Part shown: positions 3,733 through 8,580 of the stretch, in pieces | Numbering within the stretch: the first letter of the stretch is position 1 | How the letters are laid out: each line of letters begins with the position of its first letter | NCBI GenBank assembly: GCA_043766895.1 | Contig: JAYUHQ010000062.1 | Coordinates: 792-64,791 of the forward strand | Length of the DNA stretch: 64,000 bases | DNA from: Aestuariivirga sp. | GTDB taxonomy: Bacteria > Pseudomonadota > Alphaproteobacteria > Rhizobiales > Aestuariivirgaceae | Direction of reading: 5' to 3' | The notes under the pieces: generated by a model | Databases searched by the model: none | What the model was told of the DNA's origin: nothing | What the model saw: only the letters and a program-made list of their open reading frames with translations | Made by a program: the position numbers and the translations under genes

Positions 3733-4074
3733 TTATTTGTAAACGGCTTCTTTGCCGAAATGTTTGGTCAACATATAATAAACCACCGCACGATACTTAT
3801 TGCGGTTGGATTTGCCATAGGTGTCCATAACCTTGGCCAAGGCTTCATCAAGCTTTGGCCCGTTGGCCAAACCCAACTTCTTGATCAGGAAGTTTTGTTT
3901 CACGGTTTCAAGCTCAGATTCTTGTGTGGCCGAAACAGTTGCAGCATCAGCATTATAAATCGAAGGACCACAGCCGATTACAACCTTGGTCAACAAATCA
4001 ATATCAGCAGTCATGCCGCATTTATCTTTCAAATCGCCAGCATACTTGGCGATCAATTCGTCTCTTTTGCTCAT
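3733..4074 (-). CDS. DUF2853 family protein
   Basis: MSKRDELIAKY...GCGPSIYNADAATV...NKYRAVVYYML pattern typical of this small alphaproteobacterial family. Confidence 0.85.
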   Translation of the reverse strand: MSKRDELIAKYAGDLKDKCGMTADIDLLTKVVIGCGPSIYNADAATVSATQESELETVKQNFLIKKLGLANGPKLDEALAKVMDTYGKSNRNKYRAVVYYMLTKHFGKEAVYK

Positions 4075-4156
4075 GGTAATTTTCCCCTTTTAAGCATTAC
4101 AAAACTTTGTTAGCCCGATTCGGCCAAGAGTTCTAATCAGCCACCACCAAGAAGCT

Positions 4157-4975
4157 TTAATCTTTCACGTCATACGTGTTTTCTGGCAGCGGAAATGCCC
4201 TTGTCCGCACATCATCGGCATAAGATGCAATGGCTTTTTCAATGGCCTTGCCCACTTCGCCAAATTCTTTCACAAACTTTGGCACGCGCGGTGAAAGGCC
4301 CAACATATCTTCCATCACCAAAATCTGGCCATCACATGAGGCCGATGCGCCAATGCCGATTGTGGGAATATCAATCATTTTGGTAATTTTTGCGGCCAAG
4401 GGTTCAGCTACTGCCTCAAGCACAACAGCAAATGCGCCAGCTTCACTCACGGCTACAGCGTCGGCTTCGATGGCGGCCCATTGCGCGCGTTCACGGCCTT
4501 GGGTTTTAAAACCTCCAAACACGTTGATGGATTGTGGGGTCAACCCGATATGCGCCATGACGGGAATGCCCCTGTCTGACAAAAACTTGATCGTTTCAGC
4601 CATGCGCAAGCCACCCTCAATTTTGATGGCGCCACATTCAGTTTCTTTCATCACCTTAGCGGCATTGCGAAACGCTTGCGCCGGGCTTTCTTCATAAGAA
4701 CCAAATGGCATATCAACCACCACCAAGGCGTGCTTTGCCCCGCGTGTGACAGCACGGCCATGCATAATCATCAATTCAAGGGGCACAGGCAATGTGGTTT
4801 CAAACCCGTGCATCACCATGCCAAGGCTGTCGCCGACCAATAGAAAGTCGACATATTTATCAGCAATAGCAGCTGTGTGGGCGTGATAAGATGTAAGCGA
4901 AACAATGGGCGCCATGTTTTTGCGGGCGCGAATATCAGGTGCCGTAAGGCGTTTTTGAACGGTGTGTTGTGACAT
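4157..4975 (-). CDS. panB: 3-methyl-2-oxobutanoate hydroxymethyltransferase
   Basis: [35 protein letters not shown] and DGQILV motifs. Start moved to ATG 4975. Confidence 0.97.
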
Positions 4976-5142
4976 GCGAGCACTTATAGCCGGGAATGGG
5001 CCACGGCTCAAATCATTGTCGCACCACCGTTAATGGCGGCGACTAAGTGCTGATTATTCGTATACTCAAAAAACCATCCATGTTAGATAAGTGCTTCGTT
5101 TGTCGGGCGGCGACGGGAAATTCACTTCAATCGGAGGCATTT

Positions 5143-5889
5143 ATGAAACCAACTTTAATTCTCGTCGGCGCTGATAAGGGCGGCGTTGGCAAAACCACAT
5201 TGTCGCGCGCGTTGCTAGACTATTTTGCTCGCAAAAATGTTTTAACGAGGGCTTTCGATACCGAAAACCCACGCGGCAGCTTGCGCCGGTTTTATCCAGC
5301 CATCACTGAGGTGATTGACCTATCCAACGTGGCCCACCAGATGAAAGTTTTGGACACGATGGAATCTGCCAACGTGCCTGTCACCATTGTTGATCTGAAG
5401 GCTGGCAATTTGTCTTATGCGTTGGATTTATTTGAACGCATCGGCGTATTGGAAGCCGCGCGCAATGGCGTGTTCAACATGGGGCTGATGCATGTTGTTG
5501 GGTCGTCGATCGCTTCGCTTGATGAAATTGGCGAGATTGCAAAATATCTGCAAGGGGTCAGCTATGTTGTGGCAAGGAACTCCATCAACGAAACCAATTT
5601 CTTTGAATGGGATGACGCCACCCACAAGAAATATTTTTCAGCCATTCCCAAGGCCCAAGAGATCAACATTCCGAAATTAAATGAAATGGCCTATGAGCAG
5701 GTGGATGTGGCTGGTGTTACATTCAAAGATTTCATTGAAAACAAAGCCGCCGATGGATCTGCAGGCAAATTCTCGTTCGTGCTGCGTGGCTATGTCAAAA
5801 AGTGGATTTCAGAGATTGATGCCGAATTGGCACATGTGCAAATGTTGCAAGAGATAACCTCTGGCGGCCGCGCACCCAACCTTGTCTAA
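5143..5889 (+). CDS. ParA/MinD-like P-loop NTPase, uncharacterised
   Basis: GGAGG RBS before ATG 5143. Deviant Walker A DKGGVGKTT, then AFDTENP and Walker-B-like IVDL. Confidence 0.8.
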   Translation: MKPTLILVGADKGGVGKTTLSRALLDYFARKNVLTRAFDTENPRGSLRRFYPAITEVIDLSNVAHQMKVLDTMESANVPVTIVDLKAGNLSYALDLFERIGVLEAARNGVFNMGLMHVVGSSIASLDEIGEIAKYLQGVSYVVARNSINETNFFEWDDATHKKYFSAIPKAQEINIPKLNEMAYEQVDVAGVTFKDFIENKAADGSAGKFSFVLRGYVKKWISEIDAELAHVQMLQEITSGGRAPNLV

Positions 5890-5902
5890 CGCATAAAGCC
5901 CC

Positions 5903-6574
5903 GTGGCCAACCCTCCCACGGTTTATATCACGGCCTCAGACGAGAACCGCAACGGCAAAACTTTGCTGGCGCGGCTCTTGACTGACTATCTTTTGCTCGA
6001 TGGCAAAGATCCCTTCATCATCGATACCGATGCGCCAGATGGCCCGCTTCGGCAGTTCTTTCCCGGCCGCACGGCACTGGCTGATTTTGCCACAATGCAA
6101 GGGCAGATGAAGGTTTTCGATACAATTCTTGCAGCACCGGGCCGCGATTATATTGTCGATTTGCCCGCCCGCCATCTTTGGGATTTTTTCAAAGCTGTCG
6201 AAGAACTCAATGTCTTTGAAGAAGCCAAGCGCGAAGGCTTTCGCATTGTGGTTTTTTATGTGGTGGATCGCGTGGCGGCATCACTCAAAGCCGCAAAAGT
6301 TATTTATGAGCAAGAAGGTATTGATCTTTTCGTGGCAGTGCGCAACGAAAACGTAGGATCATCTTGGCCGCCTGATGAAAGTGCGTTGGTGCTGCCTGCC
6401 CTGCCCCGTGATGTGGCTGTGGCTATTTCTGATAAACGCTTCAGCCTGCGCAATTTTGTGTTGGGCGATGAACAAGGATTGGAAGATTCTGGCAAACTGG
6501 CGCTTAACACATTTCTATTTGATGTGTTGGGCAATTTGAACAGCTTGGATAACCAGATGTCTGCGCGCACTTAA
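5903..6574 (+). CDS. Second ParA-like P-loop protein with degenerate Walker A, uncharacterised
   Basis: ASDENRNGKTLLARLLTDY, IIDTDAP and YIVDLPA align by eye with the upstream protein; 13-bp gap suggests one operon. Confidence 0.72.
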   Translation: MANPPTVYITASDENRNGKTLLARLLTDYLLLDGKDPFIIDTDAPDGPLRQFFPGRTALADFATMQGQMKVFDTILAAPGRDYIVDLPARHLWDFFKAVEELNVFEEAKREGFRIVVFYVVDRVAASLKAAKVIYEQEGIDLFVAVRNENVGSSWPPDESALVLPALPRDVAVAISDKRFSLRNFVLGDEQGLEDSGKLALNTFLFDVLGNLNSLDNQMSART

Positions 6575-6585
6575 GCGCACTGTGT

Positions 6586-7335
6586 TCATGCCAAGTGGAT
6601 GGTGGCACCTTGGCGTTTGAATTTCGACAACACCAAAGCAGCAACGGGTTGGGCGACGACAAGATGACGAATAGATTTTGGCCCCGCCACATGGTAAGGG
6701 GCCGCCGTTGAAAGTTTTTCAGCTGTTGCGGCAACAACAATGTCCACACTGTTCTTCACCATCGCGCGTTTGATCTCGGCCTCAACGGAATCAAAAGCTG
6801 TCACACCGCGAACCGCATCAACACCACATGAACCCAGAAATAAAAGATCTGCATTGATTTGCGATATAGCACTTAACGTTTCTGCCCCGCTGCACATGCC
6901 AAGATCATGATGATAAGCACCACCCAAAACGACCAACTTAATTGCCTTGTGATCTGCCAACGCCACGGCCACACCCAAAGAATTTGTAACCACGGTCAAT
7001 TCCATAGTGTTGGCAATGGCTTTAGCGATTGCAATATTCGTAGAGCCACTATCAATAAACAATGTTTGGCCGGGCCGAATAAGCTTTACAGCCATTTGCG
7101 CCAAACGAAACTTTTCATTGGTTAAATGGCAGTTGCGTTCACCAAGAGAGCCAGCACTGGGCGCCAAGGCACCGCCATAAACCCGCTTGCACAAACCATC
7201 CTTGGCCAGCTCTCGCAAATCTCGCCGCGCTGTGTCTTCTGAAACGCCAAACCGTTCTGCCAAATCGCCGGCAAAAACGCGGCCCTTCAAAGCCAGTTCA
7301 GTGCGAATGAAATTATGGCGTTCGTCTGTCAGCAT
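6586..7335 (-). CDS. DeoR/GlpR family transcriptional regulator
   Basis: HTH LAERFGVSEDTARRDL; IDSGST and VVTNS sensor motifs. Start moved to MLTDERH (7335; 7350 also possible). Confidence 0.93.
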   Translation of the reverse strand: MLTDERHNFIRTELALKGRVFAGDLAERFGVSEDTARRDLRELAKDGLCKRVYGGALAPSAGSLGERNCHLTNEKFRLAQMAVKLIRPGQTLFIDSGSTNIAIAKAIANTMELTVVTNSLGVAVALADHKAIKLVVLGGAYHHDLGMCSGAETLSAISQINADLLFLGSCGVDAVRGVTAFDSVEAEIKRAMVKNSVDIVVAATAEKLSTAAPYHVAGPKSIRHLVVAQPVAALVLSKFKRQGATIHLA

Positions 7336-7419
7336 TTTCACATCCTGCATATTGGCATTTGTTCTTGCACGTTTTGCACGATTATGCAAGATTGAAGGCA
7401 TATTTGAACAGGACTGATC

Positions 7420-8580
7420 ATGACTCTTGGTGTTAACTTGGCCCCGCATCACCGTATATTCGCTGGTTTTTTTCTTCATGCCGTTGCCATGGGCAGCATT
7501 TTTCCGCGCATGGCCGATGTGAAGCAAAATATGGGTGTGGGCGATCAAACCTTGGGCCTCAGCTTGATTGGCGTTCCCGCTGGCACAATGTTAGCGCTGA
7601 CGTTTGCGGCACCTTGGGTTGAACGGTTTGGCTTTCGGCGCACCATTCTCGCGGCCATTCCTTGTGTGGCCATTGGTTATGCTTTGGCTGTGCATGCCAT
7701 AAGCCCGCCGCTGTTTTTTTTGGCGCTGTTGCCGATTGGTTTTTTGATCGGCTGCATTGAAATTGTGTTGAACACGGAAGCAGACCGTGTGGAACATTTG
7801 ATGGGCAGGCGCATTATGAACCGCGCCCATTCATTCTGGAGCTTTGGTTTTTTTGGAGCAGGCTTGGCCGGGGCCGCCATGGCACAAGCGAACATTTCAC
7901 CACAGCTTGGCTTGGCCCTTATTGCACCCGCAATTGCCATTGGTGTTACAGTTTTTCTGGGCAAGTTTGAACATTCGCCAACACGCATAGCAGAAGGAGA
8001 TATTGCGCGGCCCAAATTTGCTCTGCCAAGCTTGGCCATTCTAAGCCTCGTCGCGGTAACAATTTCTGCCATGCTGATGGAGGGCGCTGGCATTGATTGG
8101 TCAGCAATCTATATGCAATCGATGTTCGCCTCTGGGCCATTTGTGGTTGGCATCGCTGTGGCCACAGTGGCGCTTTCACAAGCCGTCACCCGCTTTTTCG
8201 CCGATGCTTATATCGAAACCCATTCACCTGAAACCGTATCGCGAATTCTTTCAGGCGTATTGTTTGCAGGCACTGTTGTTGTGTTCTTGGCGATCAACCC
8301 CGCACTATCGTTGCTGGGCTTTGCGCTGATCGGCATTGGCAACAGCGCCATGTTCCCGCTGGCGGTTTCAGCCGCTGCCCAAATGACAGATCGACCATCG
8401 GCCATCAACGTGGCCTCGATGGTACAAACCTCGTTCATGATATTTCTGCTGGGGCCGCCCCTTCTGGGCACCCTTGGCCAACATTTCGGCACCCCATGGA
8501 TCTATGGCGTTGGCGCACCCTTGGCGATTTTAAGCTGGTTTACAGCCAGCACATTAAGCGGCAAGAAAAAGCCAGCCTAA
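7420..8580 (+). CDS. MFS transporter (YbjJ-like)
   Basis: About 12 hydrophobic segments; HSFWSFG and EGAGIDWSAIY motifs; divergent from the DeoR gene. Confidence 0.88.
   Translation: MTLGVNLAPHHRIFAGFFLHAVAMGSIFPRMADVKQNMGVGDQTLGLSLIGVPAGTMLALTFAAPWVERFGFRRTILAAIPCVAIGYALAVHAISPPLFFLALLPIGFLIGCIEIVLNTEADRVEHLMGRRIMNRAHSFWSFGFFGAGLAGAAMAQANISPQLGLALIAPAIAIGVTVFLGKFEHSPTRIAEGDIARPKFALPSLAILSLVAVTISAMLMEGAGIDWSAIYMQSMFASGPFVVGIAVATVALSQAVTRFFADAYIETHSPETVSRILSGVLFAGTVVVFLAINPALSLLGFALIGIGNSAMFPLAVSAAAQMTDRPSAINVASMVQTSFMIFLLGPPLLGTLGQHFGTPWIYGVGAPLAILSWFTASTLSGKKKPA

Follow-up and report, generated by a model that had tools for sequence, protein, structure and literature searches.

A co-inherited chromosomal pair of predicted TraL-like ParA-superfamily proteins, one with a canonical and one with a remodelled P-loop

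What do two adjacent ParA-like genes do when only one of them encodes the canonical nucleotide-binding loop of the superfamily and none of its usual partner genes lies beside them? The question is raised by a pair of genes from Aestuariivirga sp., here called P1 (the upstream gene and its protein) and P2 (the downstream gene and its protein), in a stretch of 64,000 nucleotides (nt); this stretch is the window, and all coordinates are given in it. A first-pass annotation had described the two genes as an orphan tandem of ParA/MinD-like proteins, one canonical and one degenerate, and had proposed an undescribed heterodimeric positioning or signalling switch. ParA-type ATPases organise chromosomes, plasmids, division sites, flagella, chemoreceptor arrays and carboxysomes, and newly characterised ParA orphans have so far each brought new cargo or regulatory logic. 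We find that P1 and P2 are very probably a functional, co-inherited pair of paralogs among the TraL-like proteins of the ParA superfamily.

The open reading frames (ORFs), coordinates and motifs of the pair, including the deviant Walker A of P1 and the P2 loop without the signature Lys, are as first annotated. P1 begins with MKPTLILVGADKGGVGKTT and carries the Walker A motif VGADKGGVGKTT; its DKGGVGKT loop matches the deviant Walker A pattern xKGGxGK[ST], and the P2 loop does not. K12, G13, G14, G16, K17 and T18 are kept in 109/110 P1 orthologs, the sole exception being an N-terminally truncated copy in one genome (G027). Switch I residues D39 (110/110) and E41 (109/110) lie within 'FDTENP', and the Walker B D84 (110/110) lies within 'VTIVDLKAG'. 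Identity of P1 to its genus orthologs is 77-93%, similar to that of PanB. Having every residue for ATP binding, sandwich dimerisation and hydrolysis, P1 is predicted to be an active ATPase. Neither P1 nor P2 contains a single Cys, a composition that excludes a Mrp/Nbp35-, NifH-, CooC- or HypB-type metal-cluster or metallochaperone role. Judged by eye, the C-termini ('...LQEITSGGRAPNLV' and '...NSLDNQMSART') are not MinD-like and show no amphipathic membrane helix over the last 30 residues. The truncated P1 copy in G027 (locus L036, G027:C2, ~2626828-2627415) has lost its N-terminus and Walker A and still has P2 adjacent to it.

P2 aligns with P1 at 31% identity over 168 amino acids (aa) (BLASTP, E = 4e-19), and the two family profiles match each other with an hhalign probability of 98.2% (E = 6e-14); on these alignments P1 and P2 are paralogs. 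The N-terminus of P2 is (M)ANPPTVYITASDENRNGKT, and its GTG start agrees with the ortholog N-termini 'MA.xPTVYI'. The P-loop of P2 reads TASDENRNGKT. In the 95 orthologs whose N-terminus could be aligned, Lys is absent from the signature position (0/95), where Q, R, E, S, A or H stands instead, and no ortholog has Gly at both of the Gly positions; S12, G18 and T/S20 are each present in 95/95 and Arg16 in 84/95. K19, the Walker Lys, is kept in 84/95; the other 11, Methylocystis loci among them, have V, R or T at this position. The family-wide loop pattern is S-x-x-x-R-x-G-K/x-T/S. In a set of 103 orthologs, the switch I D41 (99/103) and the Walker B D86 (100/103) are nearly constant and D43 (62/103) is variable. 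Conservation is 0.55-0.63 in the N-terminal 100 residues, which contain the P-loop, switch I and Walker B/switch II and thus the nucleotide-binding/dimer face, versus 0.39-0.48 in the C-terminal half. Identity of P2 to its genus orthologs is 40-87%. Read across these orthologs, the remodelled loop is an old, selected, family-wide state and not local decay.

The loss of the Walker Lys is tolerated within the family, so P2 would appear to function independently of its own hydrolysis, and we infer that it is a non-catalytic or weakly catalytic partner. A division of labour in which P1 is catalytic and P2 non-canonical or regulatory is likely. The description of P2 as degenerate stands insofar as the signature Lys and two Gly are gone; 'dead' is unsupported, because the window's P2 retains the Walker GKT, the switch I D41 and D43 and the Walker B D86. 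The label of pseudo-ATPase is likewise plausible for a family that has lost the Walker Lys in 11/95 members and less certain for the window copy, which may still bind nucleotide because GKT and the acidic residues are retained.

To compare selection on the two genes we used the ratio of non-synonymous to synonymous substitution rates (dN/dS), a rough measure here (NG86 on codon-biased genes), of which only the close-pair values are reliable, comparisons with the window copy being saturated (dS > 1.4). Close genome pairs give 0.03-0.06 for P1 and 0.04-0.10 for P2, and the reading frames of both genes are uninterrupted in nearly all of the >100 orthologs; by these estimates both genes are under purifying selection. 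P2 evolves faster, its non-synonymous rate being 3-4x that of P1. Mean identity to the window copy across 38 loci is 82% for P1, 84.5% for PanB and 53.5% for P2, and the conservation level of P2 is about that of the YfgM-like and oxidase-like neighbours. When the two genes are compared over one and the same genome pair, dS itself is repeatedly lower in P1 than in P2 (for example 0.46 vs 1.19 and 0.87 vs 1.28), a pattern that may reflect either a tighter codon-usage constraint on P1 or its higher expression.

Homologs of both proteins are widespread in sequence databases and concentrated in one order. A word-indexed search with P1 (E <= 0.001) returned 5,123 homologous 90%-identity clusters, the 120 listed being 80-100% identical with Aestuariivirga among their names; for P2 there are 321 such clusters, one of them from Aestuariivirga litoralis. 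An exhaustive search of 50%-identity representatives gave 838 clusters at E <= 1e-3, of which 103 reach E <= 1e-30. The pair is found as two adjacent matches in 22/24 genus relatives, and within the GTDB family the P1 query matches 76/89 high-quality genomes from 19/20 genera, most of them showing two matches side by side. At the level of the order, 9/129 sampled genera have the pair or P1, among them genomes of 7-9 Mb. In a class sample of 301 genomes the window's own genome is the sole match, and in a phylum sample of 401 genomes the few matches outside the order are weak or solitary.

Named contigs allowed us to read gene order in the best 80 of at least 505 matching loci. Their hosts are Aestuariivirga, other Aestuariivirgaceae, Anderseniella, Salaquimonas, a Nitratireductor metagenome-assembled genome (MAG), Thermopetrobacter sp. 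TC1, Methylocystis, Bradyrhizobium erythrophlei and Nitrobacter vulgaris. P2 lies directly 3′ of P1 on the same strand in 75/80 of these loci, which bears out the co-occurrence that the first-pass annotation had named as a check; four of the five exceptions are at contig ends, and the fifth is Thermopetrobacter, with a P2-like gene on another contig. The spacing in relatives ranges from a slight overlap to ~360 nt and is mostly <60 nt, and the order is reversed (P2 then P1) in two fetched loci (L035 and L039). Neighbouring genes are kept within the genus only, as panB and a Der-YfgM-oxidase block, with nothing kept beyond it; other lineages have NnrU-like, apt (APRT), trpE(G), cytochrome bc1, cysN, sulfite reductase, guaA and M16 peptidase genes beside the pair. 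A conserved-neighbour search for a cargo or partner gene found none, all neighbours being housekeeping genes. Because the neighbours differ completely between lineages, the pair moves and persists as a unit. P1-P2 thus behaves as a self-contained, co-inherited two-gene module in core chromosomal contexts, preserved side by side in hundreds of Hyphomicrobiales genomes.

Some genomes of the 7-9-Mb class carry two complete P1-P2 pairs (G365:C1, ~7811030 and ~3192635), the second of which lies amid M16 peptidase, TPR and ABC genes and not mobile-element genes. Another genome of this class has an extra P1-like copy (G559:C107:19947-20673) that is split by an in-frame TAG.

To place the pair among known families we compared it with curated models, structures and plasmid proteins. 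No model in Pfam, NCBIfam, PADLOC or PHROGs scores above cutoff for P1 or P2. P1 comes nearest to Pfam CbiA PF01656 (24.1 bits, cutoff 25.4, residues 7-42 only), a weak match that recurs in 26/31 diverse family members, and reaches 16 bits against NCBIfam ParA_partition (cutoff 180); a PHROG ParA-like match is confined to the N-terminus. P2 has zero matches in the Pfam and NCBIfam searches. Neither protein matches NCBIfam TraL (NF010461) or StbB (NF041292) at E <= 1. Single-sequence searches of the PDB gave no match, and a 31-sequence profile reached ArsA, MipZ, Soj and MinD chains alone, over no more than their first 45-65 residues. For P2, an AlphaFold2 model (predicted local distance difference test (pLDDT) 82.8, predicted template-modelling score (pTM) 0.85) has 26 Foldseek matches at E <= 1e-3, every one a P-loop protein of SIMIBI type: ParA 3ea0 (Chlorobium), HypB, MinD, ParF, Soj, FtsY, NifH, and dethiobiotin and CTP synthetases. 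Template-modelling (TM) scores are ~0.4-0.5, with ParA 3ea0, HypB, MinD, ParF and Soj the best. In this model the fold class of P2 is clearly SIMIBI, with no close structural relative.

Profile comparison gives a more specific relationship. The P1-family profile matches TraL of R751 (IncP-1) with an hhalign probability of 96.8% (E = 2.5e-10, 191 columns), in an alignment that spans a C-terminal 'IP.L.E..Y' block outside ordinary ParA/MinD models, and matches a Nostoc plasmid 'ParA/MobD-like' protein with a probability of 99.3%; against R388 StbB the probability is 19% for the P1-family profile and 0.5% for the P2 profile. TraL_RP4 and MobD_pTF-FC2 have been classed as 'StbB-like' ParA-superfamily ATPases adjoining MOB regions, a group with two P-loop types, KGGxxK[T/S] and SGxxGK[T/S] (PMC3098194). 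By profile, then, P1 and P2 are a distant unnamed branch of the TraL/MobD lineage in the ParA/MinD superfamily, unmatched by the curated TraL model. The first-pass description of the pair as undescribed agrees with what we find: all homologs that carry a name are 'hypothetical protein', 10 diverse 50%-cluster representatives are without names, there is no curated model or PDB structure, and our literature search found no paper on the family.

The plasmid relatives of P1 found by tblastn are solely 52 cyanobacterial plasmid proteins, 24-29% identical among the matches listed and annotated as ParA, 'similar to MobD' or hypothetical; P2 has no plasmid match at E <= 0.1. These proteins match NCBIfam TraL weakly over the whole model length (19-20 bits, cutoff 360). 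On MOBP/MPF_T plasmids of Nostoc, Anabaena and Chroococcidiopsis (examples are pCC7120beta, pCHRO.01, pANACY.02 and pC052_E), three genes form a cluster: that of a P1-like protein (TGDKGGVGKST), that of a 250-268-aa 'hypothetical' protein and a DUF6753 gene, in this order, and in 3/4 clusters a response regulator comes next. The middle protein matches the P1 and P2 hidden Markov models (HMMs) over its full length, and its loop, GDARVGKST, is without the signature Lys and has an Arg. Small mobilisable cyanobacterial plasmids have the canonical copy only, in one case adjoining MobC. In a maximum-likelihood tree the two kinds of cyanobacterial copy, canonical and degenerate, cluster with each other (92/94), as do P1 and P2 (88/87). 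We considered whether P2 is orthologous to the cyanobacterial degenerate copy, with which it shares the loop Arg; the tree speaks against this, and an approximately unbiased (AU) test rejects a single clade of all degenerate copies (p = 0.011), with the caveats on branch length and group definition given below. From the tree, the canonical-plus-degenerate tandem appears to have arisen twice, independently, and at face value such recurrence would make the arrangement adaptive.

How might an intact ATPase and a paralog with a rebuilt loop work together? P2 is predicted to retain the fold and the face that form the nucleotide-sandwich dimer in ParA-type proteins, and ATP-bound P1 would bind P2 across this usual dimer interface to give an asymmetric dimer with one competent active site. 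P1 Lys12 would extend into the P2 site, and P2 Arg16 or the bulky P2 loop would point toward the ATP of P1, an arrangement that may determine how long the ATP state lasts. The P1:P2 complex would then recruit or position a cargo encoded elsewhere than next to the pair. We infer that such an asymmetric ATP-dependent sandwich dimer, like the unequal halves of ArsA, is the most economical mechanism, and we hold a direct P1:P2 heterodimer tentatively, at a little short of even confidence. The role in positioning or as a signalling switch that was first proposed for the pair would follow from what is usual in the superfamily. Relaxed constraint on P2 after the loss of P1, described below, fits a functional link between the two proteins.

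Several observations weigh against this mechanism. Eight Aestuariivirga genomes (G002, G404, G580, G682, G717, G720, G722 and G726; a subclade of species with larger genomes, roughly 3-4.5 Mb) give only a weak match to the P1 query, and one of them is a single-contig assembly rated 100% complete. We fetched 6/8 of these P2-only loci (L128-L133): all are syntenic, with Der-YfgM-oxidase-PanB-NnrU-like genes and then P2, P1 being cleanly gone and P2 intact with the loop SDRGRNGKT. The P2-only copies have dN/dS of 0.20-0.43 at unsaturated dS and are still constrained, though 2-4x less tightly than similarly diverged copies in paired genomes; an intact, constrained P2 without P1 implies that P2 retains some function alone. 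Solitary P1-like genes in housekeeping contexts in another class imply that P1-type proteins can also work alone, and in Thermopetrobacter the two genes are unlinked. Three genus genomes are missing both genes, so the module is dispensable. We found no real natural P1-P2 fusion, the one candidate (P0282) resembling a frameshifted gene call. The AlphaFold2 model of P1 is poor (pLDDT 49.8, from an 18-sequence alignment of ~80-90% identity), and the tree and AU test are qualified by long branches, by support that is moderate and by a test group that was defined with the tree already known. R388 StbB, with an SGxxGK[T/S] loop, is needed for R388 conjugation (PMC3098194), so loops without the signature Lys can belong to working proteins. 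Given the P2-only genomes and the solitary P1-like genes, the P1-P2 partnership is not strictly obligate, and an obligate heterodimer is doubtful.

The main rival to the heterodimer is an ATPase with an adaptor, in which P1 forms a sandwich homodimer and P2 is a paralog-derived, cargo-bound or regulatory partner that contacts it off the sandwich interface and can act alone on cargo. The motif set of P1, including the signature Lys, is complete for a homodimer, solitary P1-like genes exist elsewhere, and P2 persists without P1 in the eight genomes. Partners of the ParB, MinE and McdB types are often fast-evolving, and the 3-4x higher non-synonymous rate of P2 is as expected of an adaptor; no other partner gene is conserved nearby. 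What speaks against an adaptor is the location of the best-kept residues of P2, which are those of the P-loop, switch I and Walker B face and not of a novel surface; nor was an N-terminal stimulatory peptide of the ParB/MinE kind identified, no search aimed at it having been made. We regard this arrangement as unlikely, if still worth setting beside the heterodimer.

It is less probable again that the two proteins have independent functions, each forming its own homo-oligomer with a different target and owing its adjacency to shared transcription or history. Continued constraint in the P2-only genomes, the unlinked genes of Thermopetrobacter and the very different evolutionary rates of P1 and P2 would all be accommodated. 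Independence does not readily explain why adjacency, order and strand are kept in 75/80 loci by families otherwise without shared synteny, why P2 has dN/dS of 0.2-0.43 after P1 loss versus 0.04-0.10 when paired, or why an analogous tandem recurs on cyanobacterial plasmids.

The relationship to TraL raises a further reading, that the pair is a conjugation or mobilisation accessory acting in trans, delivering a relaxosome or plasmid to a type IV secretion system (T4SS) encoded elsewhere, on unbinned plasmids or integrative and conjugative elements (ICEs). The homology to IncP TraL is distant but significant, the cyanobacterial relatives lie on MOBP/MPF_T plasmids and beside MobC in small plasmids, and plasmids are often missing from MAGs; TraL_RP4 and MobD_pTF-FC2 adjoin MOB regions and StbB is needed for R388 transfer (PMC3098194). 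Against these stand the core chromosomal housekeeping context in every alphaproteobacterial lineage examined and the lack of any match of P1 or P2 to NCBIfam TraL even at E <= 1. Neither the PF02534 coupling protein nor the PF03432 relaxase has a match in the own genome (405 contigs, rated 94.5% complete), which extends the first-pass observation that no relaxase is nearby. Among the genus genomes PF02534 is found in 3/24 and PF03432 in 2/24 versus 22/24 for the pair, with near-complete assemblies among those without. No TraK-, StbA-, TraM- or DUF6753-type neighbour lies beside the pair, and DUF6753 was found in 0/41 genomes by a search without a positive control. We consider a role in conjugation very improbable; the branch probably came from a plasmid lineage by domestication and has since lost its tie to conjugation.

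Decay of an integrated plasmid or ICE to a relic with a pseudogenised P2, the reading that the TraL/MobD ancestry and occasional broken copies (G027 P1 without Walker A; G559 with an internal TAG) might suggest, is effectively refuted by the selection and distribution data and has next to no probability, as frames are open in essentially all of >100 orthologs with dN/dS far below 1, the unusual P2 loop is itself conserved, GC is flat (0.49-0.50), and the pair is syntenic across the genus with no integrase or mobile genes nearby. Of the first-pass alternative of decayed TraL/MobD relics found in one strain, the TraL/MobD lineage is retained at long range, and neither decay nor confinement to a strain is.

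Taken as a whole, our fullest account is that a plasmid TraL-like ATPase was domesticated in Hyphomicrobiales as a chromosomal positioning or regulatory system, in which a duplicated, catalytically dispensable paralog replaces the ParB-, MinE- or McdB-type partner and forms an asymmetric dimer with one active site, the loop Arg of P2 acting in trans, and that the same solution was reached independently on cyanobacterial conjugative plasmids. In all its parts together this account is conjectural, and we think it somewhat unlikely to hold entire.

The arrangement of the locus is given in Table 1.

Table 1. Features of the P1-P2 locus, with positions in the 64,000-nt window.
Feature	Position	Strand or orientation	Description
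panB	4157-5011	-	Divergent from P1
Intergenic region panB/P1	5012..5142	divergent	Presumed promoter region, 131 bp; from sequence and ORF map
P1 Shine-Dalgarno GGAGG	5133-5137	+	5 nt 5′ of the P1 ATG
P1	5143..5889	+	248 aa, ATG start; predicted TraL-related ParA/MinD-superfamily ATPase with intact deviant Walker A
P1 deviant Walker A	5167..5199	+	G9-A-D-K12-G-G-V-G-K17-T-T19, including signature Lys12
P1/P2 spacer	5890..5902	+	13 nt, from P1 stop codon to P2 GTG
P2	5903..6574	+	223 aa, GTG start; fast-evolving P1 paralog with predicted SIMIBI/ParA-like fold
P2 remodelled P-loop	5936..5962	+	S12-D-E-N-R16-N-G18-K19-T20; without signature Lys, without GG
DeoR-family regulator	end at 6586	convergent to P2	Pfam-confirmed

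The two genes had been read as one operon, and the layout agrees: they lie on the same strand 13 nt apart, and a simple scan of 4900-6800 finds no terminator-like site between them (4 such sites in the region, 2.9 expected by chance). This spacing, flanked by the divergent panB and the convergent DeoR gene, fits a two-gene transcription unit. The spacer has no obvious Shine-Dalgarno sequence, a reading compatible with coupled translation. A simple consensus scan of 5012-5142 found no sigma-70-like site, and 4000-8000 contains no match to Rfam families. Most Aestuariivirga genomes have 1-2 NnrU-like membrane-protein genes (~190 aa) on the opposite strand between panB and P1; the own genome is without them, and panB and P1 therefore share the 131-bp divergent intergenic region.

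The pair was also called an orphan, and this holds. The parS consensus has zero matches across the whole window with up to 3 mismatches allowed, no ParB-like ORF lies within 5 kb on either side, and there is no centromere-like repeat array around P1-P2, where short repeats are at chance level only. GC is flat across the locus (0.49-0.50), with no integrase or mobile-element genes near the pair. The ~5-kb flanks hold housekeeping genes, which encode Der, a lipoprotein, YfgM-like, multicopper-oxidase-like, DUF2853, PanB and DeoR proteins, transporters of the MFS and EamA types, a proline iminopeptidase, and formamidase-like and ABC substrate-binding proteins; most of these names were given by eye, with Pfam confirmation for DeoR and DUF2853 only. 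Across the own MAG, the strict regular expression KGG.GK[ST] matches four ORFs, none of them an obvious chromosomal ParA/Soj, MipZ or MinD, for which incompleteness of the assembly may be responsible. An ORF with 'YGKGGIGKS' outside the window (contig C114:2459-3517) resembles a BchL/ChlL/BchX-type subunit and hints that the MAG may carry (bacterio)chlorophyll-synthesis genes.

Orphan ParA-like genes are themselves familiar; on present alignments, P1-P2 marks an uncharacterised ParA/TraL-like subfamily defined by its tandem of an ATPase and a degenerate paralog. With at least 838 50%-identity clusters and at least 505 loci, the family is without a model, structure or described function, and its carriers include the cultured Bradyrhizobium erythrophlei, Nitrobacter vulgaris and Aestuariivirga litoralis as well as Methylocystis MAGs. 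An intact ATPase beside a rebuilt-loop paralog would offer a clean, testable ATPase/pseudo-ATPase partnership in the ParA superfamily, and the pair may exemplify a conjugation-accessory protein domesticated for a chromosomal role. Should it prove merely a dispensable accessory, the gain would be a modest one in annotation, with a definable new subfamily.

Among known systems, TraL (RP4/R751) and MobD of pTF-FC2 resemble P1 in size (~240 aa) and in a deviant Walker A with the signature Lys. The profile homology of TraL to P1 is full-length, but P1 and P2 fall outside the curated TraL model; unlike TraL/MobD, the P1-P2 locus is chromosomal and without oriT, relaxase, TraK or TraM neighbours, and R751 TraL is a single gene whereas P1-P2 is a canonical-plus-degenerate paralog pair. 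StbB of R388 is, like P2, a ParA-superfamily ATPase without the signature Lys in Walker A. Its profile similarity to P1 and P2 is marginal, and it partners the DNA-binding StbA beside a relaxase, a context the P1-P2 locus does not have.

ParA/Soj, MinD, ParF and McdA share the deviant Walker A, the switch I Asp and the Walker B Asp with P1. They also have the SIMIBI fold in common with the P2 model; profile similarity, seen with MipZ, Soj and MinD chains, is confined to the first 45-65 residues. The adaptors of these positioning ATPases are unrelated to them, whereas the conserved partner of P1 is a paralog. Compared with ParABS, P1-P2 has no adjacent parB and no parS in the window; compared with MinCDE, it has no minC or minE nearby (the neighbourhood only, no genome-wide minE search having been made); and compared with McdA-type systems it has no McdB nearby.

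Asymmetric dimers built from homologous SIMIBI units with unequal sites are known from the fused A1/A2 halves of ArsA, from Nbp35-Cfd1, FlhF/FlhG and the signal recognition particle (SRP) with FtsY, and the NCBI label of R751 TraL is 'ArsA-related P-loop ATPase'. Unlike ArsA and the heterodimeric SIMIBI pairs, P1 and P2 are not fused and have no metal or cluster Cys, and their locus has no arsenic, Fe-S, flagellar or SRP context. The cyanobacterial plasmid tandem, likewise uncharacterised and 25-29% identical to P1, is plasmid-borne and followed by DUF6753, whereas P1-P2 is chromosomal; it belongs to the same family and, like P1-P2, sets a canonical copy first and an Arg-loop paralog second.

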